DNA from: a virus
Length of the DNA stretch: 64,000 bases
Virus record (IMG/VR): IMGVR_UViG_3300037585_001448
Location: 1-64,000 of that record
Strand: one strand, 5' to 3'
In this document: positions 1 to 38,022 of the stretch, one piece after another
How the letters are laid out: every line of letters starts with the position of its first letter
Numbering within the stretch: position 1 is the first letter of the stretch
Program-made: the position numbers and the translations under genes
The notes under the pieces: model-generated
Seen by the model: only the letters and a program-made list of their open reading frames with translations
Databases searched by the model: none
What the model was told of the DNA's origin: nothing

Positions 1-216
1 TATCGCCGTTGAACTGGACATCCACATAGTCGTACCAGTTGCTTGTACCCAGCGAGGAGCGGGCCGAGATGGTCAAATACAGGTGGTCGTAGGACGACGG
101 GATGGTTGCCGAAGTCCATGACGCTGCTGCGCCAGTGAGTTCTTCGTGGTCGATAACAGTGAAAGCAGCCATCAGGAACTATTCAATCCGTAGAGGGTGA
201 ACTCAGAACCACGCAG
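1..216 (+). repeat. Direct repeat copy 1 (exact over 1-127, mismatches at 128 and 134)
   Basis: Matches 37807-38022 by direct reading. Confidence 0.95.
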
Positions 217-678
217 CGAGTTGTAAGAACCGTCAAGCGTGATGGTGTGAACCGCAGCGGTGGCATCCCACAAACCAGAGTGGACAAATAAATCGGCACC
301 AGTAGCGATCTTGGCTCCCGAAATAAACTGGCAAGTTGTGTTCTTGTTCGTGTTGGCATAGTCCAAGATGTCGGCTACGACAACGCCATAGTCGGCGGCT
401 GTTGAATCTCCACCCGTACCTTCCACACCCATAAGACCCGCCAAACCGCTCCAACCGCCTGCCGATACCGAACTAGCAGCCCCCAATATTCGGTGACTGG
501 TGTAGTTGGTACCTGTATCGCCATTGAATACAAGGGTGACGGAAGCGCGGTTGCTGGCTGATGTTCTGATGGAGCATCGCAGTTGCAGATGCTCATACGT
601 CGCAGGAATAGACGAGAACGTCACCGTCGCAGCATCAGCCTCCAAATACGTTGTGGAGATTGCTTCGATCACAGCCAT
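172..678 (-). CDS. Tail-tip/receptor-binding beta-rich protein (cassette gene 4, phage A)
   Basis: Motifs TFSSIPxTY, FNGDTGxNY, DYANTNK, GLW, FTLYG. Paralogue of 37978-38493. Confidence 0.6.
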   Translation of the reverse strand: MAVIEAISTTYLEADAATVTFSSIPATYEHLQLRCSIRTSASNRASVTLVFNGDTGTNYTSHRILGAASSVSAGGWSGLAGLMGVEGTGGDSTAADYGVVVADILDYANTNKNTTCQFISGAKIATGADLFVHSGLWDATAAVHTITLDGSYNSLRGSEFTLYGLNSS

Positions 679-1265
679 CAGGCCACCATCCTTGGCAAGA
701 TCCCGAACAGGGAAACCTGACTGCCAGCCAGCATGTTCTCCCCGTAAACCTCAAATACGTCGATCTCTGAGATCGGCGCCTGATTCCTCCAAGTAACAGC
801 CTCCAACCGAACCCGACCCGAACCGTCCATGTCCTCCGCAAGTTGGGCTATGGACGATGTGTATTTGCCACTGTTGATGTCGAAGATGCTGCACACCCCC
901 GATGCGAAAATGTTTGCCGTCACATTGTTGTTCGGAATGAAACCAAGGAACGTGTAGGTCGGCCCAGACGACTCCCCTGCACTGGCGCTGCTGCCATCTC
1001 CTGTGAGGAACTGCTGCCCGTAAATGGCACCAGAGTTGTTGTTGTACCGCATACCTAGATAGCCCTCGCCCGTAGCCGCTTTTGCGCTGCGGGCATACCA
1101 GACGACCATCAAATCCATGTATTGGGAGAAGTCCCCGACCTGCCCGTCGTCGGTTGAGGTGAACGTGATCGTGGCCGTATCCGACCCGAGTGTCGTCGTG
1201 CCGAGGCCGACCCATGCCTCACCGTCAGTGAGAACACCATCAACGATGTATGCGGGGTCAGCCAT
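678..1265 (-). CDS. Tail-tip/receptor-binding protein (cassette gene 3, phage A)
   Basis: Paralogue of 38493-39080, with identical N-terminus MADPAYIVDGVLTDGEAWV. Confidence 0.6.
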   Translation of the reverse strand: MADPAYIVDGVLTDGEAWVGLGTTTLGSDTATITFTSTDDGQVGDFSQYMDLMVVWYARSAKAATGEGYLGMRYNNNSGAIYGQQFLTGDGSSASAGESSGPTYTFLGFIPNNNVTANIFASGVCSIFDINSGKYTSSIAQLAEDMDGSGRVRLEAVTWRNQAPISEIDVFEVYGENMLAGSQVSLFGILPRMVA

Positions 1266-2236
1266 TATGCGACCGCGTATCTGATGATGACAATGCCCGC
1301 AGCACCGTCCTTGCCCGTTGCCACGACGCCTGAGTCAGAACCATTGCCGCCGCCGCCTGAACCCGAGTTTACGACACCGCCAGTCGGCAACCCAGCCGAA
1401 CCAGTACCACCTCCACCCGTACCTCCCGCTGCCCAAGTACCCCCTGCAGCGCCGCCGCCACCAGCGTAAACAGCGGTCGTGTGACCTGACGAGTTCCCGA
1501 TCCCGATGTAGGTGGCCCCGTTACCGCCTTCGCCACCGTGAGCGGCACCCCTCGCTTGGGCGTCTTGTCCAGCGGCACCCGCGCCGCCACCGCCGCCGCC
1601 TGCACGGGTGCTAGCATCATTTTCGGAACCGTCACCGCCAGCGTTTCCTGTGCCTACACCCGATGCCAGACCGCCAGTCGAACCGCCTGACACGGTGCCA
1701 CCGCCACCACCTGAACCACCCGCTGGGACGGTGCCTCCGACGGTGCCTCCACCGCCGCCACCGCCACCACCGTCACCTGTAGCGCCGAAAGCCGTTGAAT
1801 CGGTGCCAGAGCCGCCATTCGCTGCGCTGGCTGCTGCACCGCCTGTCCCGACGACAATCGTGTACGTCCCAGCACTCACAGCGAACGCCCCGCTCGTCAC
1901 GGTTGATCCAGCACCCCCACCGCCAGCCATCCCATACGCAGTAGCGGTCTTGCCACCGCCAGCACCCCCGCCTGCGACTACGAGATACTCCACATCAGCC
2001 GCACCGCTGGCAACATAGAACTTGCCTGAACCACGGAACGTATGAACCCTGTAGGTGGTCCCCGAGTCGACGTACTGGGTGATGATCCCACCAAACGCCG
2101 TCAAACCAGCAGCACCGAACAGGCCGCCATTCAGCCAGGTAGACGTAGCCGTCGAAGGCCACGCCTTAGGCGTACTCCTGTTCCCCCGCCAGTTGGAAAC
2201 AGCGGTAGACGGGTTGGTGCGATCCTGACGAAACAT
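1265..2236 (-). CDS. Glycine-rich domain tail fibre/receptor-binding protein (cassette gene 2, phage A)
   Basis: YRVHTF..YLVVAGGG..GGGG runs..GIVIIRY, typical of phage Gly-rich tail proteins. Confidence 0.7.
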   Translation of the reverse strand: MFRQDRTNPSTAVSNWRGNRSTPKAWPSTATSTWLNGGLFGAAGLTAFGGIITQYVDSGTTYRVHTFRGSGKFYVASGAADVEYLVVAGGGAGGGKTATAYGMAGGGGAGSTVTSGAFAVSAGTYTIVVGTGGAAASAANGGSGTDSTAFGATGDGGGGGGGGGTVGGTVPAGGSGGGGGTVSGGSTGGLASGVGTGNAGGDGSENDASTRAGGGGGGAGAAGQDAQARGAAHGGEGGNGATYIGIGNSSGHTTAVYAGGGGAAGGTWAAGGTGGGGTGSAGLPTGGVVNSGSGGGGNGSDSGVVATGKDGAAGIVIIRYAVA

Positions 2237-2239
2237 TTA

Positions 2240-2593
2240 TCAGGCAGTAATACGGTTGACGTACCCGTTTATCATCACCACATTCGCCGCAGCGGCAAAC
2301 GCCTTGATGACAAGACCGTTCTGCAACAGCAGACCCGGACACACAAGCACCCACCCTGCCTCAGCAGCAATGGTGACCTCTGTCAGATCGTCGGGTGAAG
2401 TAACGCCGCCGTATTCGATGGTTAGTTTCCTGTCCGTCGAATCGGTGTTGCAGGCGTACAGCCATACTTCGTCCAGATCAGATGTGCCTGCGACAGCGGT
2501 ATGGATGGTTGTTCCTGCCGTGGCGGTGGGTACAACCTTGATGTTCTTGCCTGTCGTGCCACCAGACAGTTTGACCTTTGAGTATGTTGCCAT
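2240..2593 (-). CDS. Tail fibre adaptor/structural protein (cassette gene 1, phage A)
   Basis: Paralogue of 40049-40414 (DEVWLYA..GYVNRITA). Confidence 0.6.
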   Translation of the reverse strand: MATYSKVKLSGGTTGKNIKVVPTATAGTTIHTAVAGTSDLDEVWLYACNTDSTDRKLTIEYGGVTSPDDLTEVTIAAEAGWVLVCPGLLLQNGLVIKAFAAAANVVMINGYVNRITA

Positions 2594-2602
2594 TATCTTT
2601 CC

Positions 2603-2977
2603 TTAATTGAAGACAGTGTTGGATAGAATATCGTTGGCGTTGCCGTCGCCCTGAAGGGAGACAGTTCCCGTAGCATCAGGGAGAGTAATCGTCCGATCCG
2701 CAGTCGGATCAGTAACATTGATGTCAGTCTCGTATGCGTTAGCGGTTGAACCCTCAAACTTGATAACAGGATTCGACCCGTCGATCTTGATACCAGCAGC
2801 AAACGTCGCCAACTCCGAAACAGACAACGTGCCCTGAACGGTCGTCAACGAACCCGACGCAGAAAGAAACGGTGTCCCAGTAGCCCACGAAACAACATCC
2901 GTGAAGTTAGTGTTCATCTGGGACGCCACAATCGATGTGCCAGCACTGAACGAATTCGTGACGTTCAAAGCAGCCAT
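2603..2977 (-). CDS. Short tail fibre stem protein
   Basis: N-terminal NSFSAGTSIVASQMNTNF anchor and DPTADRTITLPDATGT fibre motif. ATG overlaps the upstream stop. Confidence 0.6.
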   Translation of the reverse strand: MAALNVTNSFSAGTSIVASQMNTNFTDVVSWATGTPFLSASGSLTTVQGTLSVSELATFAAGIKIDGSNPVIKFEGSTANAYETDINVTDPTADRTITLPDATGTVSLQGDGNANDILSNTVFN

Positions 2978-4668
2978 TAACGGATTCTCCTTGTCCTGTA
3001 CATAGCCACAGCGGAAGTTAGGCCCCATGTCCCTCGGTTGCCAATGGCAGGAGAAACACTGAACCTTAAACTAATAGCCTTGGCTGTCCCAGCCGTCGGC
3101 CAACGGAAGAACTTGTAAATGTTCGATGTGCCCCCCGCAGCCCACTCATCCACATCCCACTTGGCCGTATCCCACAGTGCCGTAGTCGTCACACCAACGA
3201 TAGATTGGCTCTGCGACACCGCCTCCGTACTCAAATCGTAATCCTTATAGATGCCCATACGGACAGTCAACGTGTTGTCCGCCAACATGACCGTGCGCGT
3301 CTTACCCCAACGCTTAGTAAACGTGGGTCGATTACCAATAAACCAGCCCGTCTGATAGAACGACTGGATCTCCGTACCTGTCGTCCCGTCATAATCGTCA
3401 ACGTCTTCGTCAACGTCCACTTTGGAAACACGGGTAAAAGCCGCCGTAGCATCCACCACCGAAGTCACAGCCAACCCCAAATGAGCGGCACCCGTCGGAC
3501 GGTACGCCAACAAAGAACGGGCATTAATGTCGTACCGTGCCCAAGCGCCCGACTGCCCCAACGACGGATCCCACATAAACGTATTGCGCCTGTTTGCCTG
3601 ATCCGACCCGGCCAGATTGTCACCCGACTGATAGTCCACAGACAGCCACAGTTTCTCATCAAACCACATCATAGACGGGGCTGTACCCAACGTCAGCGTC
3701 GACCCGTCATCCAACGCAGGCTTGAGGCGTTCAAACGCCCACGCCAAATCATCGTAAGACAACAAGTAGACGCCGTCTTCGGCATACCAGAAAAAGATTC
3801 CCACCGTTGAAGCGATAGGGCTGGTTCCGTTGCGGCATCCTGCCGCACGGGTAATGTTCCGAACCTCAAACGAGTCCCTGCTGAACCCGTAGATGGCGTA
3901 CACGCTGTTCTGCTTGAATACCAGTAGACGATCAGCGTCGGGGATAATGGCCGTTATGAAGTCGCCATCTTCGCCGATATCGATGTCGATGAAGTCGGTG
4001 GCTGTCCAGTTCTCCGCATCGTTCACCTCAGAAAACCTGACACGGTTTTTGTATGCCGTCCCCGACTCCGTTGTGTAGGCCACCCACACGAACTGTCCCC
4101 ATGTGGCAAGATAGCGTGCCGCTGGAAAGTGGCCGTCCGAAGCGTCAATGTCCGGCGTCAACGTGGTCGCATTGTTCGATCCAGACCATCTGACCGCCGA
4201 CTTGGTGCCTTCGCTACTCAGCAGGCTCCCGTTGGAAAGGTAAGTGTATTCGTTGAACGTGACACTGGCTGGAGGCTGAACCCCAGCGAATACGACCGTC
4301 CCAGCCGCCGAGGCGACCGCCGTGCCCCCAAAGTTCCCCGATGCCCCGTTGTTCCAGTACAACTTGGAGTTGCCGCTGTCTTTAACGGAAGCCAAAATCT
4401 GGTTAACGGAAGCGTCAGAATGCTGGTAGATGCCGTAAATCTGATCGGCTAAAGCAGTCCCGTTCAAAGCGTCAATGGCGTTGCGGCGCGACACGCCGCC
4501 ACGCGGATCAACGTCCACGTTCAGCAACGCCGGGGACTCGCTTGGGGCCAGATTGAACTGGTCTGCCCTGAGGTTCAAACCGCCCGTAAAATCGGCACGT
4601 TCGTCGTAACGGTACGGTTCAGCGTACCCCGTGTTTCTAAAACCAGCGGCGGGGAGGGTGAAAGCCAC
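2977..4668 (-). CDS. Tail tubular protein B / stabilisation (P22 gp10-like beta-propeller)
   Basis: DFTGGLN N-terminal motif, beta-propeller-like repeats, position after the adaptor gene. Confidence 0.7.
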   Translation of the reverse strand: MAFTLPAAGFRNTGYAEPYRYDERADFTGGLNLRADQFNLAPSESPALLNVDVDPRGGVSRRNAIDALNGTALADQIYGIYQHSDASVNQILASVKDSGNSKLYWNNGASGNFGGTAVASAAGTVVFAGVQPPASVTFNEYTYLSNGSLLSSEGTKSAVRWSGSNNATTLTPDIDASDGHFPAARYLATWGQFVWVAYTTESGTAYKNRVRFSEVNDAENWTATDFIDIDIGEDGDFITAIIPDADRLLVFKQNSVYAIYGFSRDSFEVRNITRAAGCRNGTSPIASTVGIFFWYAEDGVYLLSYDDLAWAFERLKPALDDGSTLTLGTAPSMMWFDEKLWLSVDYQSGDNLAGSDQANRRNTFMWDPSLGQSGAWARYDINARSLLAYRPTGAAHLGLAVTSVVDATAAFTRVSKVDVDEDVDDYDGTTGTEIQSFYQTGWFIGNRPTFTKRWGKTRTVMLADNTLTVRMGIYKDYDLSTEAVSQSQSIVGVTTTALWDTAKWDVDEWAAGGTSNIYKFFRWPTAGTAKAISLRFSVSPAIGNRGTWGLTSAVAMYRTRRIR

Positions 4669-4670
4669 CG

Positions 4671-5468
4671 CTACTCCCACGAATAGCGTAGACGGGCAGG
4701 CAGGAACGTTTGTGACCGCCAACGTGAAGCGTTGTTCGAATTGAGCAGCAGTGGTTGTGGGGCAGGCGAGTCTTCAAACCGTGCCCGCAAGTTTTCCAGT
4801 TCTCCTTGGAACAGGGCAAAGTATTGGTTGCCCATTCCGGAGTCTTCCTGCTGCTGATATGCCCGATATGTCACATACAACGTAAGAACGTTGTCGAAAG
4901 GATTGGGCCAATCGGGGGTGTCTGCGTCCGCTATACCAGCGCGATAGATGGCAGAGTTGCCGCCGAAATCGATGGCGTTACGGTATCCGCGGGCGTAAAC
5001 AGTGATTGCTTCCGAAGGGGTGGGGTACAGTCTGATCTGTAACGCGCCGCCCTGATTTCCCCACATGGACCAGTACCACGGGTCACCCGTCGTGTTGGCG
5101 TTGAGCGGGTAGACGATGTCGCCAGCGTCTCGTCCAATAAACTCCAACACATGGTCGTCGGTTCGCAGGGCCGCTACTTCCCGTATCCCCGGCGTTTTCG
5201 GGGCGGAAGCCCCGGAGAACGTTACTGCGTCGTGGACGAGTTGAACGCCTGTGGACGCATTCGATCCCACATCGGCTAACGAATAGTCCTTTGTGGAAGC
5301 AACGGTGTCGAAGGTTACACCCACCTCGTAGAACGGCCACCGTTTTTCCGAATATACAACGAGGTTGTAGCCCTCCCTGATGAACGTATTCAGGACGGAG
5401 TCAGAAATGTCTGTTGAATCGATGTCAACTACGTTGCGGACATAGTCACGCATTTCGCTTAGTTGCAC
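4671..5468 (-). CDS. Head-tail adaptor / tail tubular protein A
   Basis: Helical N-terminus, WPF and IRLYPTP motifs, located downstream of the capsid gene. Confidence 0.65.
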   Translation of the reverse strand: MQLSEMRDYVRNVVDIDSTDISDSVLNTFIREGYNLVVYSEKRWPFYEVGVTFDTVASTKDYSLADVGSNASTGVQLVHDAVTFSGASAPKTPGIREVAALRTDDHVLEFIGRDAGDIVYPLNANTTGDPWYWSMWGNQGGALQIRLYPTPSEAITVYARGYRNAIDFGGNSAIYRAGIADADTPDWPNPFDNVLTLYVTYRAYQQQEDSGMGNQYFALFQGELENLRARFEDSPAPQPLLLNSNNASRWRSQTFLPARLRYSWE

Positions 5469-5477
5469 AAAACGGCC

Positions 5478-5735
5478 TTACGTCGTGTGGAAAACGCAGG
5501 TGTCTGTGTCCCCGATCGGGCGCCCCTTGCAGGGGTTTCCGTTCTTAGTGGTGACGACACAGATCGGAGAAGGCGCCGCCACGGGAGGTTCATGGGTGGG
5601 GGTGGGGTTCACGCGTTGCACACGCCTGCCCTGCCCAATGGGGGGGCTTGCGGGGTTGAGCGTCTTATAGTTTCCCGCAGGTTCACCTGCAGGGCGCTGA
5701 CCCTGTTTGTATGCGTATGCGAAACCCCGTGCCAT
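5478..5735 (-). CDS. Small protein with C-terminal Cys/His Zn-binding motif
   Basis: CxxxTKxGxPCK..CxxH motif; GGAGG RBS. Confidence 0.55.
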   Translation of the reverse strand: MARGFAYAYKQGQRPAGEPAGNYKTLNPASPPIGQGRRVQRVNPTPTHEPPVAAPSPICVVTTKNGNPCKGRPIGDTDTCVFHTT

Positions 5736-5759
5736 GATACCTCCCGTAGCGGCAGCCGA

Positions 5760-6701
5760 CTAGCCGTTGGTGATGCCGTGCAAACGTCCCTGACGGGCGC
5801 GGTTGCTGACGGTCAACTGGCCATAGCAAAGCAACTGTGAGAACACAGCGTCCTGATTCGTTGGACGCACGAACGGCGTCGGCTTGAACCAGACATCACT
5901 ATGGGCCACCAACTGGAGGTACTTCGTGTTGAGGAAGTACATTTCGTTGGCAGGGCACGAATCATCAAACGTGATGGGTGCGCCCTTGAACAGCAGGTTC
6001 TGGAACCCGCCATCAGCCATGTCGGTATCCGTGTAACGGATCTGGTCAACCAGCAATGCCTCATAGGCTTCGTAACTCTGCCTACGGCCCATGATGATTG
6101 TCGGCTGGTCGTTGCCAACCGAAATGGTGTTGTACATGGAAGCCATGCCAGCCTGCGTAAGCACGCCGCCAAGGTTGGTCTGGGTTGGTCCCCAGAACGA
6201 GTTGCCAGCAGCGCCGGGGTTGATACCACCCACGGTGCTTCCAGAAACAAGGCTCTGAATGCCCTCCCAATCCTTGCCACCGTTGCCTGAGCCGTCAGCC
6301 CAGAACATGGTGTTCATGTTTTCGATAACGGATTCCTGCGTCTGGAAAATCTTGCCTTCCAGCAGATCAATGATCTGTGCCTCACCGTTATTCTTGGCTT
6401 CCTCAATACCGCTGATGGTAACGGTGGCAGCGTACTGGCCCCATGAATACTCAGCGGCCGAAATGCCTGTCTGAGCCGTCACGGAAATAGTATCTGTGCC
6501 GCTGTATGAACCAGCAGTTGAGTTTGTCCCATAAATGATTGGGACTACGATATTCGCACCACCCGAAATGCGCCGAATCGTCTGACCGTTCGTCAGGGCA
6601 TAGAACAAAGGCCTAGCCGAGAAGATGTTGTCAGTAAGTTTCGGGACATAGTTTTTAAGGGTGGTAGACAGAATCTCGTCAAAATCAGCGTTACCCGCCA
6701 T
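5760..6701 (-). CDS. Major capsid protein (HK97 fold), phage A
   Basis: 313 aa, follows the scaffold gene; VGGIN and MYFLNTKYL-type motifs. Confidence 0.85.
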   Translation of the reverse strand: MAGNADFDEILSTTLKNYVPKLTDNIFSARPLFYALTNGQTIRRISGGANIVVPIIYGTNSTAGSYSGTDTISVTAQTGISAAEYSWGQYAATVTISGIEEAKNNGEAQIIDLLEGKIFQTQESVIENMNTMFWADGSGNGGKDWEGIQSLVSGSTVGGINPGAAGNSFWGPTQTNLGGVLTQAGMASMYNTISVGNDQPTIIMGRRQSYEAYEALLVDQIRYTDTDMADGGFQNLLFKGAPITFDDSCPANEMYFLNTKYLQLVAHSDVWFKPTPFVRPTNQDAVFSQLLCYGQLTVSNRARQGRLHGITNG

Positions 6702-6723
6702 GGTCTGTCACCTCGCTTTTCTG

Positions 6724-7455: not shown

Positions 7456-7527
7456 TTTATTGCCTCCTGAGAGTTCGCCTATTGAGCGACTGCTCTCTTC
7501 TACTAGGGACACTCTGTCCCAATCGAT

Positions 7528-9665: not shown

Positions 9666-9667
9666 AG

Positions 9668-9973: not shown

Positions 9974-10013
9974 AAAGACCTCCAAGTCTTAATAAAGCCT
10001 CTACAGGAACTGG

Positions 10014-11861: not shown

Positions 11862-11862
11862 C

Positions 11863-24776: not shown

Positions 24777-24785
24777 TATGTTTCC

Positions 24786-28600: not shown

Positions 28601-31600
28601 CCTTCGTTTCCAAACCCAAGAACCTTCGGGACAGCCACCCCCCTCTTGCTCCTCCAGAGCCTCCCCTGATTGCCTCTCAGTTCTCCCGGCACCGTCGGCG
28701 TCCTCTTAGCCGAACCGCCGCTCGTGTACCCACCCCCTACAATGTCTGCGGCCCGAACCGCCCCATCGGCACCCAAGTTTCCGTCAGCAACGCTGGCTAT
28801 CTCCAACCCGTAATACGACCCAACATCCAGCGGTCTATTGGCTAAGCGAGTAAGCCCAGCCATACCGTAAAAGTGGTGTCGATTAAAATCACTGGTAAAT
28901 TCGTTCACCATGTCTGGGATAACCTCAGCCCAACCGCTCAGAGTATCTCCAAGCCCGGCCCCACTGGCGATAATTTCTTCGATGGCGTCCCTGATGGGGC
29001 CAGCAGGCGGCAACACTAGATCACCGTTGGCAATAAGATCATTTATCGGCGCATTCGCGGCGTTCGGTCGTTGTGCAAGCAGGTCTTGAGCAGCCCGGAT
29101 AAACGTTTTAGATTCGGCACTCAGCCCGGGAGTCTCCCAAACAGTTTGCAAATTGCCATCAGCATCAGGCAGACGCCACGCTTGAAACGGTTCGAACAGT
29201 CCGTTCGCCCCGCCCTCCACCACACGATTCCCAGCCCCGTCGCTTCTCCCAAAGATGTACGAGTCCACCATGTCTCCACGATCCGTACTCCCAGTCATTA
29301 TCGACCCTGCCCTGACTGGGACTTGAAGCCTGTCGGCCTCATACAAAATCATAGAATCCATGTACGCACCCAAAATGCGCTGTATTCTGGGCTGAAAATC
29401 GGAGACTTCAATCATTGTGCCAAGGACTCGCGCCGTATCGGAGCGGTTGAACGATCCAAACACCGTAAAGGTCACATCGAACCCGTCGTTCACATACCAC
29501 GTTGCAGTAAAACCTATGATTTCTTCAAACGGCAACCTGCCCGCTACAGCATCAACGCTTTCTCCCGTCACATCAGCCACCGCTTGAGCAACATCCCTAT
29601 GTACCGCTTGGAGTCCCCTCAAACTGCTAATCAGTTTTTCGCCGCGCTCCGCCCCTTCCGGGGTGCCCCCCATCCCGGCCCTGATCACCTCTTCGGTCGA
29701 CCGCAACTCACCACCCGGCGTTGCGGGTGGATACCACTTCTCATCCACGGGATGCCGCATCTGTTCCTCACTGAAACGATGCAAAGCACGGTTATTCCCA
29801 CCCTCAAAGCCCATGGAAGCAAACTCTGCGTTGACTTGGTCAAAGAAAGTCTGCGTGGGTACACTCTGGGTGCCAGCAGACAACGCTGTCGCCCGACGCA
29901 AAGCCTCAGCGGCAACAACCGTCTGATCATGCAACATCGCAGAATCCGACAAAGACGCAGCAAACGGCAACAAGTCAGTCTCCAAGAAATTCAGGCTCGC
30001 TTGGATGTCAGCATCCAAAGCCTGAAGCCCCGCAAGAAACGTCGGATCATCCACTGCCCCCGTAGTCGCATCCACGGTCCGGACCACCAGCCCCGTAGGC
30101 CCAGTTGTAGAGCCAATGTTTCGGATGTCCTTGCTCAACTTGGCGAACTTCGCTACCCCTTCGCTCAGCAGGCGGGCACGAACCATCACCGAATCCAAAT
30201 CCTCCAAGATGGGTGCCAACTGGCGGATCGCATCTATCGAAAACGCCACAGGGTTCGCACCCGGCGGTGCAGCAACCAGATCCTCAAACGGAATACCCGA
30301 GTTCAACCATCCAAGTGTCGTATCCGTCCCCGGCACACGCGGCGTAGTAGCCACCCGCCTGTACCCCAAAATGTCCTGCAAATCATCAACAATCGCAGTC
30401 ACCTCGTTAACCAAAAGTTGCGACTCAACACGCCCCTCATGCAACAAATTGGTCAACTCGTCTACACGGGCCTGCGCTTCAGGAAGATCAGCCCCATGAC
30501 GGGCCACCCACGCCTCAAGATTCTCAATCGTCTGCGCCCGCGCACCCGCCCCCACAGCCAGAATCGCATCAACAACAGCCTGAGCAGCAGCCTCATCATC
30601 CGTCAACCCCTGCAACGCCTCATTGCCAACCCGAACAGCGTCCTCCAAATCAGCCAACTCGCGGGCATACCCCCTATAGGTATCAGCGTTATAGATCAAA
30701 CCCTGCGAAGCCGCATACGACTCAATGGACCGCAACCGAATATCCGCAGCCAACGAATTGATATGAGCATTCTCGCGGGCCTCAAACCCCCGAACAAACA
30801 ACGACTCGCCCTCACCCAAGTGACCAGCCTCACGATACGCAGCCTCAATCTGCTCCGGAACAGACAACCCCTCCGGCTCAGTCGTAAGTTCACGGGCAGG
30901 ACGGCGACGCCTAGTCGCCAACTCCTCCGGCGTCAGATCACGCCGAATAACAGTAGACCGACCATCCGGCCCCTGACCCACCACACGCTGCTGCACATCG
31001 GCACGCTGAGGATTACTACGCCTCAACAAACGACGCACACTCCCCGACCCATCCGCTCTAGGGACCACCAACTCAGTGCCATCACCAAACGTGCCATCGG
31101 CACGGGTACCCGCAGGCCGCATGTTGCGGCGGCGAAGCCGCCCCGAAGTAGCCCGACGACGCACCTCATCCATAGTCTGAGCGTCCGGCAACACCTCTTC
31201 AAACTCGCGGGAAACCCCCTCCATCCACGGCGGCAAACCACCACCATGCGCCCCCCGAACAATCTCCAAACCATCAGGAGTCCAAATCTCCGGCGTGTAC
31301 CCCCCAAAGTCCACCATCACATCATTCATGTCATTAACAAGTTGCCCCTCAGACCCATACAAATCGCCCCGAGACAAAAACTCTGAATCAGGAGTACGAA
31401 TCAACTCGTCATAACGCCGAACAACAAACAAGATCTGCTCATCCGACAACCCGGGGAAACGACCCCGCACCGCATCCATCACCTGCGGAGAAACAACACC
31501 ATCAGCGAAATCGTCCACCAACTCCGGCGACAACTCCGTCAAACGCCCCAACGTCTCATCATCCACGCGCCCAACATTCTGCTGAACCTCATTCAAGAAA

Positions 31601-32901
31601 ATCTTGCGCCGACGCATAGCGCTATCAGCCCAATACCCGCTCGTCATCGCACCACGGTTGTAACTGTTGCGTATAAAGTTACCGAGAATAATCTTGTCAG
31701 GATCCTTCGTGCGAAGAAGACTGTTAGCGACCTTCTTCCGATCACGACCCTTCTGCTTAAACGCAATATCCTCGTCCGTAGCGCCCCGACCCCGAGCCAA
31801 CGTGTCCAAATACTTTTTTTGCGGATCAACAAAGAAATCACGGAACGTCTGACCGAAACGAGAAGAAGCCACCTTCTCCCAACCGATACCCGGCGACGAC
31901 ATGATCGATGCCGTCACACCAGAAGCAATCGGAAACACACCAAACGGCAACACATCCACAGGCACATTCGCCGCACGCTGCAACACCTGCCTGAACTCTT
32001 CAGGGATCTGATCCAACGTTTCACGCTTCTGGGCCTTAAAGACCAGATCTGCCATATCGGCATCCGGACCCAACACCTTCGCCATGCGTTCCTGAACGAG
32101 CCGTGGAATCTGAGACGCACGCTTGCGTGCAATACCAGCAGAACCACGGGTCAGCCTGCCCAACACTGGGCCTGTTCCCGGGACACGGAACCTCAGCCCC
32201 GTTTCAATCCCAAGATCATCGATAAGTTTCTTGCCGACCTCGCCATGCTGTCGTGCCAGAACATTTCTGGCACGAGAAACACTGCCACCCTTGGCACCAG
32301 CAGCCACCACAGCATCCTGTGCAGCCCGCAACGTAGCCTGCTGAGTGGCATCCCTGACACCCAACTCCCCCAGATCCTTCACCAACGGTGCCAGATCGTC
32401 CACAAGCCCCTTAGCGCCCCTCGCACGGGCAAAAGCACCCAACCCCCCAGCCCAAGACAACGGATCCAGCAGAACGTCTCCAGCAAGCCCTACAGCCCTG
32501 TTACCCCACTTGCCCAGATTGATATCTTCATCATGGAGAAAGTCGCCAAACCCATAATGTGTACGCGCCTGCTCCGTGAAGTCGCCCCAACTGAAACCCT
32601 CACCGTCGAAAGCGTCCTTGATCTCCTTCACACCCGAAGTGAGAATCGCACGGGGCATATCGATTACACCCAGTGCTTTGCCTAGGAAACCGCCGAAACC
32701 CCCGCCACCCTGTTGGGCGCCCTGTTGGGCGGCACGGCCACCCGAGGCGGCGAGTGCCGCCGCCATGCCAGCACGGTCAATCCCCCCCACCCCCCTAGGG
32801 GTGGTAGGCAGCGTGGGCAGGCCCGTTGGCATGGCGGGTAGCCGGGTACCACGGTTCTCTACGGCCTTGAAGATGTCTTCAGGAGACAGCCGGACGACCA
32901 T
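25603..32901 (-). CDS. Large internal virion/DNA-ejection protein (2432 aa)
   Basis: N-terminal GLAGDVLLDPL; C-terminal FNYGGLS..VFPFYTWTRNNLP, typical of podovirus ejection proteins. Confidence 0.7.
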   Translation of the reverse strand: MVVRLSPEDIFKAVENRGTRLPAMPTGLPTLPTTPRGVGGIDRAGMAAALAASGGRAAQQGAQQGGGGFGGFLGKALGVIDMPRAILTSGVKEIKDAFDGEGFSWGDFTEQARTHYGFGDFLHDEDINLGKWGNRAVGLAGDVLLDPLSWAGGLGAFARARGAKGLVDDLAPLVKDLGELGVRDATQQATLRAAQDAVVAAGAKGGSVSRARNVLARQHGEVGKKLIDDLGIETGLRFRVPGTGPVLGRLTRGSAGIARKRASQIPRLVQERMAKVLGPDADMADLVFKAQKRETLDQIPEEFRQVLQRAANVPVDVLPFGVFPIASGVTASIMSSPGIGWEKVASSRFGQTFRDFFVDPQKKYLDTLARGRGATDEDIAFKQKGRDRKKVANSLLRTKDPDKIILGNFIRNSYNRGAMTSGYWADSAMRRRKIFLNEVQQNVGRVDDETLGRLTELSPELVDDFADGVVSPQVMDAVRGRFPGLSDEQILFVVRRYDELIRTPDSEFLSRGDLYGSEGQLVNDMNDVMVDFGGYTPEIWTPDGLEIVRGAHGGGLPPWMEGVSREFEEVLPDAQTMDEVRRRATSGRLRRRNMRPAGTRADGTFGDGTELVVPRADGSGSVRRLLRRSNPQRADVQQRVVGQGPDGRSTVIRRDLTPEELATRRRRPARELTTEPEGLSVPEQIEAAYREAGHLGEGESLFVRGFEARENAHINSLAADIRLRSIESYAASQGLIYNADTYRGYARELADLEDAVRVGNEALQGLTDDEAAAQAVVDAILAVGAGARAQTIENLEAWVARHGADLPEAQARVDELTNLLHEGRVESQLLVNEVTAIVDDLQDILGYRRVATTPRVPGTDTTLGWLNSGIPFEDLVAAPPGANPVAFSIDAIRQLAPILEDLDSVMVRARLLSEGVAKFAKLSKDIRNIGSTTGPTGLVVRTVDATTGAVDDPTFLAGLQALDADIQASLNFLETDLLPFAASLSDSAMLHDQTVVAAEALRRATALSAGTQSVPTQTFFDQVNAEFASMGFEGGNNRALHRFSEEQMRHPVDEKWYPPATPGGELRSTEEVIRAGMGGTPEGAERGEKLISSLRGLQAVHRDVAQAVADVTGESVDAVAGRLPFEEIIGFTATWYVNDGFDVTFTVFGSFNRSDTARVLGTMIEVSDFQPRIQRILGAYMDSMILYEADRLQVPVRAGSIMTGSTDRGDMVDSYIFGRSDGAGNRVVEGGANGLFEPFQAWRLPDADGNLQTVWETPGLSAESKTFIRAAQDLLAQRPNAANAPINDLIANGDLVLPPAGPIRDAIEEIIASGAGLGDTLSGWAEVIPDMVNEFTSDFNRHHFYGMAGLTRLANRPLDVGSYYGLEIASVADGNLGADGAVRAADIVGGGYTSGGSAKRTPTVPGELRGNQGRLWRSKRGVAVPKVLGFGNEGGMRVGPTPLSAASGDAAARQVALLTELGDLENILNVNYLSNLLPDALRSETSGTSMESLIAHAKHVREGLAATAEQTWGTAGLQRYMPFLGREPFPVPSAVGDPSGLSPRIDLPEMRARLEDLQISLEDQISGGPSSAQADDFAMEVAGIPTDAGTLRSFAAGFDDLDPQYVLDDLMTRVDDTISNIAYAADTGSGRTAGLSPLNDFWRAFRDLRNAARWTPAAGGYTPGDTFIGLAGSDQFAALVDDATWDAAIAEYRANGQRLGLFDEEDRYPLSLLETNNPQLRANIDADVSDPGLRDLLNEYALVRVGDRVYNPAAAEAGGATYTAPIPEQVANVIRDALDTGVGVRSNEYWNAIQSVLDNWGVPNGAFERGELIEWGYLVQQYDNLRAGKVNQASFMAEERLYGAFDKAILDTSDEINRLNTQIRSSDPAARAASQGRLDARRETLAKKELLVQNIQLQRLEVEQKILLAEQQRNNLANKVGNMLGAANGKPFNLNSFGGQFDLSGVTASQLQDLFNAGGKQMWGSGAMDEWLVAGNAEFADEFTYAMLAAQKMDDRVEVGNFLKAYDKAHNWLKAQMVATPGFVARNVFGGMANMWFADIPLTEVPRTFRLIDKAYKAGNGDLAAGFRKLVADNPGNVEYANALELVQLGVHGGGQAASVVDVNLGRTSRMDWVWGSKENSKYSGRIRMNPMDAGFFMFAGVRHANTFAEEAMRLGTGLYMRRVGGSVDDALEMTYKLHFNYGGLSEAERRFGKRVFPFYTWTRNNLPLQMSFLANSPGKFNRLMSLRRNIELGEEREGTVPDYFMEGFGLQLPFSIGGAQAYSQPDFPLQDLFKFDPTQRGYGKVMEQMFSSTTPFLKTPIEYWAGKRVFEGIPFREEYVPVPAATRMIPGLMQAAQALGWAKKNSKGEWMMYDNRLAVLDNMMPFVGRLRRVIPEDEKTQSRWIQSVMSMFGGVSLRLNTPREQRNERVRRRVEREMTRQDRLDLERPRR

Positions 32902-32906
32902 CGGAT

Positions 32907-35525
32907 TTACTTACCCCATCCGGGTTTCCCGTTGGCTTTCAGCATCCCGAACGTATTGCCACGGCTATGTTGGAACAGAATGTATTCTTCCACAGTGGGA
33001 TAGTTGGCAGGCAAGATGTCCATCATGGCTTCCAACTCCACATCACCGTATTTGGTTCCTGCGCCCTCGTGCCCTGCAGGAACAGTGAAGGAGTCGCCCG
33101 ATTGGAAGAAGCGACCAACGGCTTTACCAGTAGCAGCCGCTGCATCACCAACAGCGCCCGAAACGCCTTCACCCCACTCAAAGTTGCCCGTCGTGCCTTT
33201 TTCACGCAGTCGCCTCATCTGCTCATTTTTGACGGACAGCGACGACCCTGCTTCTAGGCTCTCAGATTCCGACAAGTTCCCAGCCCCCGAATCGTACCCA
33301 CCAGTGGTGGTCCGGGTTTCCTCCAAGGCATCCACGGCAGCCTCCGCCAACGGCTCAGCAACCTCCTGCGAGGTGCCATCTTCCATAAACTGTTCGGTGT
33401 ACAGGAACGTCAACACTGGGCCGTAGCCCAAAGCAGCCAGAGCGTGTGCGTAACCTGTGTTGTCGGCGTTGATGTTGTTGTTATACATGTAGTCAGCGAC
33501 TTCCTGCATAATCGCAGCACCGCCCTCTACCGAACCAGCGTGCAGCGACAACTGTGTCCCCAAGTTGAAATCCTGATCGCCCAACTCGGCAATATCCATC
33601 GCCTGATCCCACGCAAACTGATCGTCAGCCAGATCAAACTTGTCTTCAAGCAACTTGAACTGGTTCTTCTCCAACTGGCGGTCTATCACCCCAGCAGCCT
33701 GATCGCCGCGGGCCTCCCACCAATCCAAATCCAGCCCCTTCTGGGCGAAGTCCAACTTGTCAGCAGCCATACCCTCAGTAGAAGCAATCTGGTCAGCGAA
33801 CTGTTGAGCCGACACCTGCTCCGCAGCAGTCAACCCCGTCGCCGTATCAAACCCGTACTGGCGCCCAGTCGACGGGTCGATACCCTGAGCAGCCAACGTC
33901 GCCGTCTGTCCAGCATCCAACCCAGTCGCAGTGTTAAAGCCGTACGGAAGACCAGTAGCCGGATCGATCCCCACATCAAACTGGCGGATCTGCTCAGCCA
34001 ACCTGTCAGTATCGACCGCCCGATCCAAACCGCCCTCACTGACAGTCAAAGCACGATCCAACGCAGCCTCACTGATACCAGTCGACAAGCCCGGAATATC
34101 CACCCCGGAAGCCAACCCGGCAGCAACAGCACGCGGATCCAAACCCAAGAACGGTGCCAAATCAGCGGCCTGCAACGCCTGCGAACGGGCATCATAATCG
34201 GCACCAATCCTGTCCGTCTCAGCGCCATAACCCAACTCGTTCGTACGGGACCGCAAATCCTGCTTGTACCCCCCGAAGATACCCTCACCCATAAACTTGC
34301 GGTCGGCATCAGCCATCTGAGAAACCAAACCCAGATCATCTAAATAGGCTCCACGCTCCTCAGCGCCCGCCATCGCAACAGCATCAGTCATATCCAACCT
34401 GTCACCAACCAACCCCGGGTTCACCCCGGCAGCCCGCAACTGCTCCTCCAAAGCCATACGGTCGTCGTACCGTTGCGCCCGCTGAGCATCACTCACATTG
34501 CGGAAATCGCTAGTAACAGCGTTCTGTGTGGAAAGAAAATCTTTCCACACGCGCTCAGTCTCAGTATCGTACAGTTCCTGCGCCGTCTTAATATCCAACA
34601 GACCACTGTTCAACATGCTTGTGATAGCGGTCTTGGTGTCGTCCAGTCTGGTTTGGGCGACATCGCGGGCGTTCTCACTTAACGTTTCAATAGTGCCTGC
34701 GGGGTCGCCCGGAGGAATGTAACCCGCTGGTGGAACATAGACGGGGTCATCCACAACAGTGTCATCCACAACGGTGTCATCTACGACGGTGTCATCTACG
34801 ACGGTATCGTCACCGCCACCCATGTCGCACGCGCCGTTTACCCAAGTTCCCCCACCCTCAACACACAACTGCTGGGGAGTTTTAGCAACACCCTTGACTT
34901 TAATCTTGCCGTCCACCCACTCGTACTTGCTCGTGGCCGCAGGCTCTCCCAAACCTCCTTGACCATCCCGCAACATCGTTGCGGCGTCCTCGCTTAAAAA
35001 CCCTGCAACGCTGCCATCCCCCATGGGATCCAGACCAAACTGGACACGAGCCTCGTCGCTACCCAACCCCTCCAACATCTTCAAATACTCGTTCGCATGC
35101 TGCTGCGGAGTCTTCTCCACAACAGGCAAATCATCTACTCCCGATGCTGCGTTGTTGGCGTCGTCAATAGCCTGCATCGCCGTAGCGTTTATATCACCCC
35201 ACTGGTACTGTGACCCCGTCGGGGCAGCCGTAGTTGCATTCGCTGCGCCACCCGGCGACTGATCAGGGAGAATCTTAAACGCCGCAGTACCATCCGGCTT
35301 CAATGTAACTGTGCCGTTGCCATGGGGCTTCAGCATCGCCTCCACGATCTGGCGTTGTGCATCAAACCCCGGAGTCACCGTGGGAAGCGGCTTCGCTTCG
35401 GAGCCTTGCGCCACAGACGCAAAGAACCGCGCCAACTCAGGCGAAATAACATCCTTCGTTTTCGTGGGAGTCCCCTGAGAATAACGGTTATTACCTTGAC
35501 CCGGATCGAAACCAAACCCACCCAT
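32907..35525 (-). CDS. Internal virion/ejection protein (872 aa)
   Basis: Acidic and helical, with DDTVV repeats; upstream of the large ejection protein. Confidence 0.55.
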   Translation of the reverse strand: MGGFGFDPGQGNNRYSQGTPTKTKDVISPELARFFASVAQGSEAKPLPTVTPGFDAQRQIVEAMLKPHGNGTVTLKPDGTAAFKILPDQSPGGAANATTAAPTGSQYQWGDINATAMQAIDDANNAASGVDDLPVVEKTPQQHANEYLKMLEGLGSDEARVQFGLDPMGDGSVAGFLSEDAATMLRDGQGGLGEPAATSKYEWVDGKIKVKGVAKTPQQLCVEGGGTWVNGACDMGGGDDTVVDDTVVDDTVVDDTVVDDPVYVPPAGYIPPGDPAGTIETLSENARDVAQTRLDDTKTAITSMLNSGLLDIKTAQELYDTETERVWKDFLSTQNAVTSDFRNVSDAQRAQRYDDRMALEEQLRAAGVNPGLVGDRLDMTDAVAMAGAEERGAYLDDLGLVSQMADADRKFMGEGIFGGYKQDLRSRTNELGYGAETDRIGADYDARSQALQAADLAPFLGLDPRAVAAGLASGVDIPGLSTGISEAALDRALTVSEGGLDRAVDTDRLAEQIRQFDVGIDPATGLPYGFNTATGLDAGQTATLAAQGIDPSTGRQYGFDTATGLTAAEQVSAQQFADQIASTEGMAADKLDFAQKGLDLDWWEARGDQAAGVIDRQLEKNQFKLLEDKFDLADDQFAWDQAMDIAELGDQDFNLGTQLSLHAGSVEGGAAIMQEVADYMYNNNINADNTGYAHALAALGYGPVLTFLYTEQFMEDGTSQEVAEPLAEAAVDALEETRTTTGGYDSGAGNLSESESLEAGSSLSVKNEQMRRLREKGTTGNFEWGEGVSGAVGDAAAATGKAVGRFFQSGDSFTVPAGHEGAGTKYGDVELEAMMDILPANYPTVEEYILFQHSRGNTFGMLKANGKPGWGK

Positions 35526-35956
35526 TACGCCATAGCCTCCCGAATCTCAGCCGCCCTCGCAGCACGAGACTCAGCCACCCCCAAAACATCCTCAAACCGC
35601 GACCCCTGATAACCCCCATAATCACCCAAACGCTGTACCGCCAAATTGAACATAGCCTGCTCCAAAGCGCCCCCACGCTCCGCACGACGGCGATCATAAT
35701 CCGCCCCCGCCTCCGCCAAAGCCAAATTGCGGATACCAGAATCCTGCAAACCACGACGAGCCATACCCGCCTCCAACTGGGGTACAGCCTTACTCCACTG
35801 CTTCGACATATCAAACTTGTCGCGGTTATACGACGTACGCGCCTGCTTCTGCCCCATAGAAGACTTAGCCAAAGCAGCAGCCAGACGCGACGAAGGAGAA
35901 GTCCCGTACGGATCCGCTATATTGTACTTTGGTGTCTGATACGGGTTGAACGCCAT
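35525..35956 (-). CDS. Small internal virion protein
   Basis: MARRGLQDSGI motif; synteny. Confidence 0.55.
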   Translation of the reverse strand: MAFNPYQTPKYNIADPYGTSPSSRLAAALAKSSMGQKQARTSYNRDKFDMSKQWSKAVPQLEAGMARRGLQDSGIRNLALAEAGADYDRRRAERGGALEQAMFNLAVQRLGDYGGYQGSRFEDVLGVAESRAARAAEIREAMA

Positions 35957-36339
35957 CAGCCGTAAACCTGACCTGCCAACAGCAACGTAGCCGTTTCCAC
36001 ATTCACATTCACAGTCACAGTACCCGACGCACCACCACCACTGATGGCTGTGCCAGCCGTCACACCCGTAATGTCACCAGTAGTAGGGGCCGTCCAAGTT
36101 AGCCCGCTCGCTGTAGTTGAATCGGCAGTAAGAACATACGTATTTATTCCCGCCGTCAACTTCGTCGCCGTATCGGCCCCTGTTCCAACGATCAGATCGC
36201 CCTTGGCGTCCGTGTCTACAGTAAGGGTCACGGCACCCGTTGAACCGCCACCCGCTAGACCCGACCCCGCCACGACATCCGTGATGTCGCCCGTCGAAAC
36301 CTGATCTACGACCCTTTGAGAAATCCGATTCAAACCCAT
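35956..36339 (-). CDS. Short tail fibre protein with two GDITxVxAG repeats
   Basis: Repeat also seen in phage B gene 40424-41185. Confidence 0.6.
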   Translation of the reverse strand: MGLNRISQRVVDQVSTGDITDVVAGSGLAGGGSTGAVTLTVDTDAKGDLIVGTGADTATKLTAGINTYVLTADSTTASGLTWTAPTTGDITGVTAGTAISGGGASGTVTVNVNVETATLLLAGQVYG

Positions 36340-36341
36340 TG

Positions 36342-36635
36342 TTACGCTCCAAAGTACGTTACGAAGATTGTGGAACTAGAACCACCAACACGAATAAACC
36401 TGATGACCGACAAATCGTCATTCACCAACTCAGCCGTGCTGTACGGATTCAAGTAATGACCAACAGACGTAGTGGGCGTACCCCACCTCATCCTGATCGC
36501 CTCAGCACCATTCGTAATCATTGCCGCCACAGCACCAGCAGGGATGGAAGCCAACCCGATAGATGCGTCAGCGACAGTCAAGGACTCGTCGCCCAGTTTG
36601 CTCCCCATCTCTGAGGCTGCCTGCCTAATAGCCAT
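36342..36635 (-). CDS. Small beta-rich structural protein
   Basis: AGGAG RBS; PTTSVGH motif. Confidence 0.5.
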   Translation of the reverse strand: MAIRQAASEMGSKLGDESLTVADASIGLASIPAGAVAAMITNGAEAIRMRWGTPTTSVGHYLNPYSTAELVNDDLSVIRFIRVGGSSSTIFVTYFGA

Positions 36636-36771
36636 AACTGCTCCTAACCGCCAAGCGCGGTTACTCGCGCTTCCAAATCGTCCAACTTCTCTTGAATCTT
36701 CCGCAACTCGTACTCAATGGGGCGAGCATTAGCGCCCTGCATCCGACGAGTAGGTTTGTACACGACCGTCA

Positions 36772-37122
36772 TCATTCCTCCCAGAAAGACTGCTCGTCCT
36801 GCATCAACAACACGCCCACAGAGGAAGCCACTCCAGCGATCAGTTCCTCCATTGCGTCCACACGGCTACACAGGTCTTCCATCGCTGCCAACCGTGTTTC
36901 TAAATCCCGAATGTCTTCCGAAACATCTTCCACTCGCGCATAAGCGTGCATATCCATCGAATCTTCAATGGATTCAACCGACTCTTCGAGGCGGTCGATG
37001 CGTGACACTGTGCGTGCAGACGACCATGTGATTGTTCCTGCGATGACCGCTACGGACAGGATGAGCCCGACCGCGATGGTCGGTATCTTTACCTGTCGGA
37101 TGTCGGTCGGCTCGTTCATCAC
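36772..37122 (-). CDS. Membrane-anchored coiled-coil protein
   Basis: One N-terminal TM helix followed by heptad repeats. Confidence 0.55.
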   Translation of the reverse strand: MMNEPTDIRQVKIPTIAVGLILSVAVIAGTITWSSARTVSRIDRLEESVESIEDSMDMHAYARVEDVSEDIRDLETRLAAMEDLCSRVDAMEELIAGVASSVGVLLMQDEQSFWEE

Positions 37123-37445
37123 TCAGCAGCGAGCCTTGCCGCCTCAGCAGCATCCCAAGCAGCCTGTGTTGGTGGGTCCATCGGCCACACAACCTCAGAC
37201 ACACGCGAATACGTCGCAGGTAGATCCCGCAACGACTGGCGGTACGCAGCCCACTCCTCAGCGGTGTGGTCACCTAACGCGGCGTCAGCCAACTGTGTCC
37301 AGTCTGCTGCTGCCAGCATCCCGTTGCGTTGCGATCTGACCATGTTCATGTCCAGATCGGCAGCCTCAGCCCGCGCATCCAGTTCCGCTTCTTCTTCCGC
37401 GGTCAGGTCGTAGTAGACCCCGTTGACAACCTTCTGTCTTGCCAT
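37119..37445 (-). CDS. Tail fibre assembly chaperone
   Basis: RSQRNGML..DWTQLADA..WAAYRQSLRDLP..WP. Confidence 0.85.
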   Translation of the reverse strand: MARQKVVNGVYYDLTAEEEAELDARAEAADLDMNMVRSQRNGMLAAADWTQLADAALGDHTAEEWAAYRQSLRDLPATYSRVSEVVWPMDPPTQAAWDAAEAARLAAE

Positions 37446-37447
37446 TT

Positions 37448-37978
37448 CTATGCTCCTGTTACTCCGTAGAGGGTGAACGATGAATACTGCATCAGGTCGC
37501 CGTTTTGCGGGTCGATAGTGATTGAGGTGATCGCAGCGGTGCTAGACCACAACCCCGCCCCTATGCCCATTGTCCAATAACCGTTTGTGGTGGTAGCCCC
37601 TTCGGTGACGAACCCTGCTACTACCTGCTTGAAGTTCGCCGTGTTCGCATAGTTCGGAATCCAAATGCTTGCGTTACCGAAGGTGTCAGCAGTTGACCCA
37701 TCGGCGTTTATGAGAAGAACGCGATCCAAACCATCAGCACCCGACGTTCGCCACGACCCTGCGGAAGCCTGCCCATAGACTCCCGTTGACGAATAGTTGG
37801 TACCCGTATCGCCGTTGAACTGGACATCCACATAGTCGTACCAGTTGCTTGTACCCAGCGAGGAGCGGGCCGAGATGGTCAAATACAGGTGGTCGTAGGA
37901 CGACGGGATGGTTGCCGAAGTCCATGACGCTGCAGCGCCTGTGAGTTCTTCGTGGTCGATAACAGTGAAAGCAGCCAT
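37448..37978 (-). CDS. Tail-tip/receptor-binding protein (cassette gene 5; contains the A/B junction)
   Basis: Same motif family as 172-678; its 5' end is also present at 1-172. Confidence 0.65.
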   Translation of the reverse strand: MAAFTVIDHEELTGAAASWTSATIPSSYDHLYLTISARSSLGTSNWYDYVDVQFNGDTGTNYSSTGVYGQASAGSWRTSGADGLDRVLLINADGSTADTFGNASIWIPNYANTANFKQVVAGFVTEGATTTNGYWTMGIGAGLWSSTAAITSITIDPQNGDLMQYSSFTLYGVTGA

Positions 37979-38022
37979 CAGGAACTATTCAATCCGTAGA
38001 GGGTGAACTCAGAACCACGCAG
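37807..38022 (+). repeat. Direct repeat copy 2
   Basis: Matches 1-216. Confidence 0.95.

Follow-up and report, generated by a model that had tools for sequence, protein, structure and literature searches.

Genomes that co-exist in a sample and have highly similar regions in common are a documented problem for virome assembly, in which contigs may be built from more than one genome (PMC4247695). In short-read de Bruijn assemblies, such inter-genome chimeric contigs join at a k-length word that both sources contain exactly, and the two sides belong to separate genomes; the k list of the JGI metaSPAdes workflow, for example, is 33, 55, 77, 99 and 127 (that is, its last two values are 99 and 127; 10.1101/2020.09.30.320929). 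Terminal overlaps of k-mer length, one genome length apart, in SPAdes and MEGAHIT contigs are normally read as ‘circular, complete’. Marine phages of distinct morphologies can also have genes in common, as described for the Alteromonas schitovirus A5 and myovirus V22, both of which possess a host-recognition module consisting of a tail fibre and its cognate chaperone (PMC10579305).

Here we analysed the first 64 kb (64,000 nt; hereafter, the window) of the IMG/VR record IMGVR_UViG_3300037585_001448, which is 93,140 nt long as a whole. Judged from its sequence, we propose with a probability of roughly 0.88 that this record is an inter-genome chimeric contig with a figure-eight topology and not a hybrid molecule. 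Like the chimeric contigs described above, the record joins on an exact shared k-length word with separate genomes on either side; unlike the usual cases, it holds both genomes nearly whole (that is, one full circle and a second that lacks only ~267 nt). As in circular contigs from SPAdes or MEGAHIT, a 127-nt repeat recurs one genome length apart; unlike in those contigs, the second copy is internal and the path continued into the other genome, so that testing the record as a whole for end repeats would miss it. As in A5 and V22 (PMC10579305), phages of one environment but of unrelated tail types carry a homologous fibre and chaperone cassette, a pattern that implies horizontal exchange. However, the protein families differ from those of A5 and V22 and the pair here is podovirus-like and siphovirus-like, and the likeness concerns the phenomenon as such rather than the A5/V22 protein families.

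Exact repeats at the join and contig ends

The record contains two words, here called X and Y, that occur exactly in both of its parts (termed phage A and phage B), and these lie in or overlap a single gene at the junction:

1..127: shared word X, copy 1, at the contig start; N-terminal coding part of the 176-aa probable fibre-tip gene
37807..37933: shared word X, copy 2, at the internal join (passage of the contig from phage A into phage B)
37441..37539: shared word Y, where the 3′ end of the 176-aa gene meets the start of the chaperone gene
37448..37978, minus strand: junction gene, an open reading frame of 176 aa

The identity of bases 1–127 with 37807–37933, reported in the initial annotation, was confirmed, with the first mismatch at 128/37934; past copy 2, the sequences differ at 37934 and 37940 and then agree for another 82 bases. 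The record ends with the twin of Y, 99 nt (contig 93042–93140, beyond the window) that match exactly and are preceded by a mismatched base. The contig had been described as a ‘lasso’, yet the B arm rejoins A at 37441–37539 at the far end of the contig, which makes the shape a figure-eight and B also a nearly closed circle. A k-mer census agreed with these boundaries. At k = 127, circle A and part B have one word in common, X, which is both the join and the contig start, and the common run is exactly 127 nt given that no word of k = 128 is common to circle A and part B; at k = 99, the sole common word outside X is Y, which is the contig end. The value of 127, put forward earlier as the usual maximum k of SPAdes, matches the top k of the JGI metaSPAdes workflow (33, 55, 77, 99, 127). 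An exact search of X in IMG/VR returned no match other than the record itself. Neither tRNA genes nor inverted repeats of at least 40 nt were found, and thus neither signals an integration site at the join.

These features most probably arise from two distinct phages in one sample, the 37.8-kb podovirus-like A and the ~55.6-kb siphovirus-like B, for which X (127 nt) and Y (99 nt) would have been common vertices in the de Bruijn graph, so that the two circles formed a figure-eight. The assembler, probably metaSPAdes or another de Bruijn program that steps through several k values up to 127, would then have walked from X through A to Y, across the 267-nt middle segment of A back to X and then through B, to stop at Y. 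The B arm may stop 99 nt into Y because the k = 99 round had left a dead end there; because the stop lies at 99 nt, a low-coverage tip carried over from that round must be assumed. Had the graph been built at k = 127 alone, an arm that runs into a common repeat should have overlapped it by 127 nt rather than 99.

The same contig sequence would, however, result exactly from homologous recombination in X. In such a real 93-kb cointegrate, A and B would have co-infected one cell and recombined in X or Y to give a joint circle or concatemer, a process to which identical stretches of 127 and 99 nt are suited and for which B encodes an Erf-like annealing protein and endonuclease VII. That the join and both contig ends fall precisely on assembler k-mer lengths argues against this route, as do the gene contents and genome sizes considered below.

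Phage A

1..37806: phage A, one complete turn of a 37,806-nt circle; podovirus-like
5760..6701: A major head protein (PHROGs)
6724..7512: A scaffold protein (PHROGs)
7528..9393: A portal protein (PHROGs)
10014..11565: A terminase (PHROGs)

Phage A additionally encodes a helicase/primase, an endolysin and two proteins of virion size (872 and 2432 aa), and no tape measure was found in it. The copies of X are spaced 37,806 nt apart (that is, one A genome length), the sequence returns to its start, and relatives are colinear with A across that point. The A-like record G001 (36,765 nt, 95% complete according to CheckV) is colinear with A around the whole circle, and a second A-like record, G005 (38,153 nt, 99% complete according to CheckV), is likewise colinear with A. 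The proposal that phage A forms a complete circle of 37,806 bp is supported by G001 and the contig L187, both of which cross the predicted closure point; L187 bridges sequence specific to the A end (37189–37346) and sequence specific to the A start (2392–3016).

Direct terminal repeats of 100–300 nt are frequent in short-tailed phages, and a repeat at the contig start that recurs one genome length on could be taken for the genuine terminal redundancy of a linear phage A, comparable to the short terminal repeats of T7-type phages, to which B was joined by chance. We reject this reading as scarcely credible because the repeat lies inside a coding gene (37448–37978) and its second copy runs on as diverged colinear homology for ~2.3 kb into the B cassette; moreover, the length of the repeat equals the standard top k, and G001 and L187 read straight through the point.

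Megablast of the first 20 kb of phage A against GenBank phages gave no matches, and the A capsid protein has at most 37% identity to those of cultured phages.

Phage B

37807..64000, continuing to contig 93140: phage B; siphovirus-like
42449..46642: B tape measure
46796..47233: B tail chaperone
47676..48443: B major tail protein (tail tube)
50839..51786: B major head protein

The record contains 55,334 nt of phage B, ~267 nt short of a closed circle, which gives a genome of ~55.6 kb; its portal, terminase, endolysin and Tfa-like chaperone genes all lie beyond the window. Two B-like records are rated 100% complete, G002 with 56,319 nt and 77-nt end repeats and G003 with 53,538 nt and 119-nt end repeats. 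The closure of B is crossed unbroken by G003 and G006, in which the tape measure and distal tail are followed by the cassette, a homologue of the 176-aa protein, the 134-aa chaperone and then the endolysin. The B capsid protein has at most 49% identity to those of cultured phages.

Separate gene sets of A and B

An earlier observation that two unrelated capsid and tail sets are present proved correct, as BLASTP of A against B gave no capsid, portal or terminase match. The 93,140-nt record holds two terminases, two portals, two capsids and two endolysins, which belong to two complete and mutually unrelated packaging, head and lysis sets, and A and B have separate replication or recombination genes. 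The GC content is 56.9% in A versus 60.2% in B, and the tetranucleotide distance is 0.023 between the two parts versus 0.013–0.016 within parts.

Records from other samples that are A-like (36.8 and 38.2 kb) or B-like (53.5 and 56.3 kb) have cleanly separated gene content. G001 matches 30 of the 54 A genes versus 6 of the 81 B genes, and of these six, four fall within the cassette or next to it, whereas the other two, adjoining the cassette, are homologous to the cassette genes at 37978–39080; conversely, G002 matches 37 of the 81 B genes versus 2 of the 54 A genes. The 80 best IMG/VR relatives of each capsid include no contig longer than 38,153 nt for A or 56,319 nt for B.

These observations bear on the 93-kb cointegrate. 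Its length would be 1.7 to 2.5 times the genome sizes of the relatives of either capsid, far above the largest of them (38 and 56 kb), and on this basis presumably neither head could package it. Furthermore, no relative has both gene sets, and a duplicate of every essential module is unexpected in a stable genome. Given these points and the coincidence of the joins with k-mer lengths, we consider a cointegrate very unlikely. An assembly chimera, already suggested in the initial annotation, is favoured by all of the sequence-level tests that we ran (that is, the sole common 127-mer, the sizes of relatives and the relatives that cross each closure).

We therefore recommend dividing the record into two genomes, one complete (37.8 kb) and one nearly so (~55.6 kb). 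As a single entry, it would bias genome-size statistics upwards, interfere with clustering and host prediction, and give the impression of a phage that has two capsids. The main value of the case is one of curation; in addition, it provides a clean example of a figure-eight misjoin that is invisible to an end-repeat test.

A tail-fibre and chaperone cassette in both phages

172..2593, minus strand: tail-tip cassette of phage A, encoding proteins of 117, 323, 195 and 168 aa
37978..40414, minus strand: tail-tip cassette of phage B, encoding proteins of 121, 321, 195 and 171 aa
37119..37445, minus strand: A tail-fibre assembly chaperone, 108 aa (Pfam PF16778, E 4.6e-19)

X is flanked by homology, with 98% identity up to 223/38029 and then colinear identity of 71–85% up to ~2391/40212. 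As colinear homology continues past it, X is best regarded as the best-conserved island within a homologous gene cassette. The earlier claim that the two phages have near-identical DNA in common holds for the identical 127 and 99 nt; however, what they have in common is not one near-identical gene but a homologous tail-fibre and chaperone cassette of ~4.6 kb, in which boundaries are near-identical and gene interiors are 45–60% identical. Nucleotide islands of 80–100% identity between A and B lie at the gene boundaries, and the cassette proteins of A and B are 55–73% identical. The cassette contains three paralogous β-sandwich genes of 168–195 aa with near-identical boundaries, and the 176-aa junction gene is paralogous to these 168-, 171- and 195-aa genes. 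On the chaperone side, identity is 90.7% over 37347–37539 between A and the B copy at the contig end, and the first ~100 nt of the A chaperone gene are homologous to the gene for the 134-aa B chaperone (contig 92642–93046), which matches a PHROG tail fibre assembly family. The 323-aa cassette protein of A contains a Gly_rich_2 domain (PF21722), and a Pfam scan of ten cassette-region proteins left seven without a match. Cultured phages have almost no relatives of the 176-aa and 321-aa cassette proteins.

Fibre genes and chaperones (PF16778 or Tfa-like) are thus homologous between A and B, whereas heads and tails are unrelated. The biological content of the record is a fibre and chaperone cassette common to a podovirus-like and a siphovirus-like marine phage, which is a known kind of event; with its letter-identical gene boundaries, it adds one further case to the known phenomenon (PMC10579305).

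This cassette occurs in A, G001, B, G003 and G006 but not in G005 or G002, a distribution that demonstrates its mobility between the two lineages, and mosaic variants of the 176-aa protein exist (P0122). Both facts would suit a stable hybrid in which the A-type chaperone side truly lies next to the B-type tail, such that the adjacency of 37806 and 37807 is biological and the contig is only partly chimeric. However, in all three relatives for which both cassette flanks were recovered, these are of one type (A-type for G001, B-type for both G003 and G006), and the second capsid and terminase set would still need to be explained, and we regard this arrangement as very unlikely.

The islands at the two ends of the junction gene are 100% identical between A and B, versus 82–88% in the closest relatives of either lineage. 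It is conceivable, although we hold it to be unlikely, that a receptor-binding gene was exchanged very recently between a short-tailed and a long-tailed phage that co-occur on one host, and that the boundary islands act as recombination linkers of a cassette-swapping system that operates across morphotypes. Taken to its extreme, this reading would make the contig the recombination intermediate itself.

The junction gene and its product

A and B have identical sequence at both ends of the junction gene, whose middle 267 nt are known from A alone. The encoded protein has 583 homologues, none of which is named. Its AF2 model is an all-β sandwich (pLDDT 93) with middling fold matches (best VIA Z 7.3, rmsd 3.5, 123 aligned; Foldseek TM ≤0.40), and the matches are mixed, comprising GH32 C-terminal domains, lectins, C1q/TNF domains and parts of phage fibres or baseplates. 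We suggest that the protein is probably a distal fibre or receptor-binding (fibre-tip) subunit, and limit the assignment to this wording because the fold matches are only middling. Protein clusters include near-identical 176-aa variants and a 127-aa fragment, encoded on contigs of ~1.0–1.2 kb.

Repeats and shared words in the record

We consider the 93-kb molecule to be, with a probability of roughly 0.88 on sequence grounds, an assembly artefact that merged two phages, a podovirus-like A (1–37806) and a siphovirus-like B (37807–93140). The window covers positions 1–64,000 of one 93,140-nt IMG/VR virus record, and sequence comparison confirmed the exact 127-bp repeat reported in the initial annotation (1–127 and 37807–37933, here X), with the first mismatch at 128/37934. 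Past X, identity is 98% up to 223/38029, beyond which colinear homology of 71–85% extends as far as ~2391/40212 at a steady offset of 37,806–37,815; X is part of a longer homology and not a free-standing repeat. No N, tRNA gene or long inverted repeat was found near it. When the whole record was compared with itself, its last 193 nt (92948–93140) matched 37347–37539 at 90.7%, and the final 99 nt (93042–93140, here Y) equalled 37441–37539 exactly, the base before them being mismatched. Given this second exact end match, the order of the record is therefore X (1–127), A, Y (37441–37539), 267 nt of A, X (37807–37933), B and Y (93042–93140).

A k-mer census of circle A against part B on both strands found exactly one common 127-mer, at the join and contig start, and zero common words at k = 128; at k = 99 there was one further common word, the record's last 99 nt. 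In a graph of the two genomes built at k = 127 or 99, the only vertices that A and B would have in common thus fall at the two ends of the contig and at the internal join. The JGI metagenome workflow uses metaSPAdes with k = 33, 55, 77, 99 and 127 (10.1101/2020.09.30.320929) and, as the assembler of this record is unstated, we infer that its ends and join are tied to these k values. The simplest explanation of the 99-nt stop would be a dead-end edge left over from k = 99 that k = 127 did not extend; if true, coverage of B would have been low there.

Gene content of the two parts

Phage A is mostly minus-strand, from the terminase round the circle.

Features of A (window coordinates)
172-2593, minus strand: tail-tip (fibre) cassette
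2603-5468: virion and tail proteins
5760-6701: major head protein
6724-7512: scaffold
7528-9393: portal
10745-10014, minus strand: terminase large subunit, nuclease part
11565-10660, minus strand: terminase large subunit, ATPase part, in another frame
24786-25586: endolysin
37119-37445: PF16778 chaperone
37448-37978, minus strand: 176-aa gene, spanning the join
Plus strand: exonuclease, DnaB-like helicase, primase

Neither a tape measure nor a tail tube was found in A, and distant relatives of its capsid are short-tailed phages of 38–50 kb. The two terminase parts (window 10014–11565, minus strand) overlap by 86 nt; as the parts likewise lie in different frames, ~140 and ~280 nt apart, in the A-like relatives G001 and G005, respectively, the split appears to be a conserved trait and not an error of sequencing; the terminase may be encoded in two parts, carry a frameshift or be interrupted by an intervening element. 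Two proteins of 2432 and 872 aa (window 25603–35525, minus strand) had no PHROG match at E <= 0.001; they are encoded between the endolysin and the fibre genes, a region in which one would expect ejected or internal virion proteins, and the 2432-aa protein has homologues in G005 (46% identity) and G001 (29%).

Features of B
Window 37978-40414, minus strand: cassette copy
Window 58686-64000, on to contig 64376, minus strand: 1896-aa open frame (putative MuF-type), directly after the portal
Contig 75291-75935 (L001:17291-17935): Erf-like single-strand annealing protein
Contig 78103-79242 (L002:3103-4242): endonuclease VII-domain protein
Contig 86048-89794 (L002:11048-14794): 1248-aa protein
Contig 92642-93046: Tfa-like chaperone
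Further genes: distal-tail genes, 1397-aa tape measure, tail chaperone, major tail protein, major head protein, protease, portal, terminase, endolysin

The 1896-aa protein has a 56%-identical homologue in the B-like G002, and the 1248-aa protein, which has no PHROG match, is 66–67% identical in G002 and the B-like G003. The annealing protein and the endonuclease VII-domain protein are recombination functions that could favour exchange wherever two sequences share a short stretch of identity.

BLASTP matches between the proteins of A and B are confined to the cassette genes with two small neighbours and to the endolysin C-terminal domain. The earlier claim of two unrelated capsid and tail sets was borne out, each part having its own structural set with no BLASTP match between the capsids. 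A has a GC content of 56.9% against 60.2% for B, and the tetranucleotide distance is 0.023 between them versus 0.013–0.016 within the parts.

Separate relatives and closure of both circles

Contigs among the best 80 IMG/VR loci per capsid reach at most 38,153 nt for the A type and 56,319 nt for the B type. G001 (36,765 nt, 95% complete) matches 30/54 genes of A and 6/81 of B, all six of the latter in or beside the cassette or endolysin, and G005 (38,153 nt, 99% complete) matches 19 of A and 2 of B; G002 (56,319 nt) matches 2 of A and 37 of B, and G003 (53,538 nt) 7 and 30. Across these four relatives, A-type and B-type gene content separates cleanly. Repeats of k length at the ends are the usual mark of a closed circle; G002 and G003, both rated 100% complete, have terminal repeats of 77 and 119 nt, respectively.

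That A is a full 37,806-bp circle, as first proposed, is supported by G001, which is colinear with the entire circle (168-aa gene, 176-aa gene, chaperone, A-end genes), and by the metagenome contig L187, which joins A-end-specific 37189–37346 to A-start-specific 2392–3016. On the B side, an unbroken run of genes in the closed genome G003 and in the B-like G006/L003 leads from the tape measure and distal tail, by way of the cassette, a 176-aa homologue, a 134-aa chaperone and genes of 96 and 116 aa, to the endolysin. All that B lacks as a circle is thus its own version of the 267-nt middle of the 176-aa junction gene.

A true cointegrate, produced when A and B recombined within X, would read identically to the record; we regard it as very improbable, and the Y match, the k-mer census, the separate relatives and the closure points support and extend the original proposal of a de Bruijn chimera of two phages. 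Short-read virome assembly has been documented to yield chimeric contigs that combine two or more viral genomes which occur together and are similar in part (PMC4247695), and the present record resembles these.

The shared cassette and the 176-aa protein

The cassette is carried by A, G001, B, G003 and G006 and is missing from G005 and G002. Its proteins are 55–73% identical between A and B, and nucleotide identity is 80–100% in sharp islands at gene boundaries (1–216, ~570–700, ~1195–1310 and ~1945–2240), dropping to 45–60% within the genes; the top island lies on both sides of the 176-aa gene. With a cassette that occurs in part of each lineage and near-identical boundary islands, the assembler could cross from A to B. 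The proposed crossing through a near-identical tail gene therefore holds for the islands that flank the 176-aa gene, but not for the interiors of the cassette genes. As the same islands are only 82–88% identical in the nearest relatives, the 176-aa gene was probably exchanged recently between A and B, or via a common donor. Fibre and chaperone modules are similarly common to morphologically distinct marine Alteromonas phages (PMC10579305).

The 176-aa protein is a paralogue of the 168-, 171- and 195-aa cassette proteins and a member of a large protein family, as yet unnamed, from marine metagenomes. Its high-confidence model (pLDDT 93) is a beta sandwich with candidate fold matches, none above Z 7.3, to lectins, GH32 C-terminal domains, C1q/TNF domains and phage fibre or baseplate parts; because its gene lies directly ahead of the fibre-assembly chaperone, our best guess is a putative distal fibre or receptor-binding subunit. 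The 168–195-aa paralogues within each cassette and the 176-aa third paralogue (window 172–1265 and 37448–39080, minus strand) share motifs such as FNGDTG.NY and a C-terminal F/L-TLYG, suggesting that the fibre tip has several subunits or is interchangeable. Small sibling contigs also encode the 176-aa protein, in identical or nearly identical form. In P0122, from a 1,090-nt ENA contig, the first 66 residues equal the window's 176-aa protein and the remainder is of the P0121/P0003 type, a mosaic that may reflect either real intragenic recombination or a further small chimera made in assembly.
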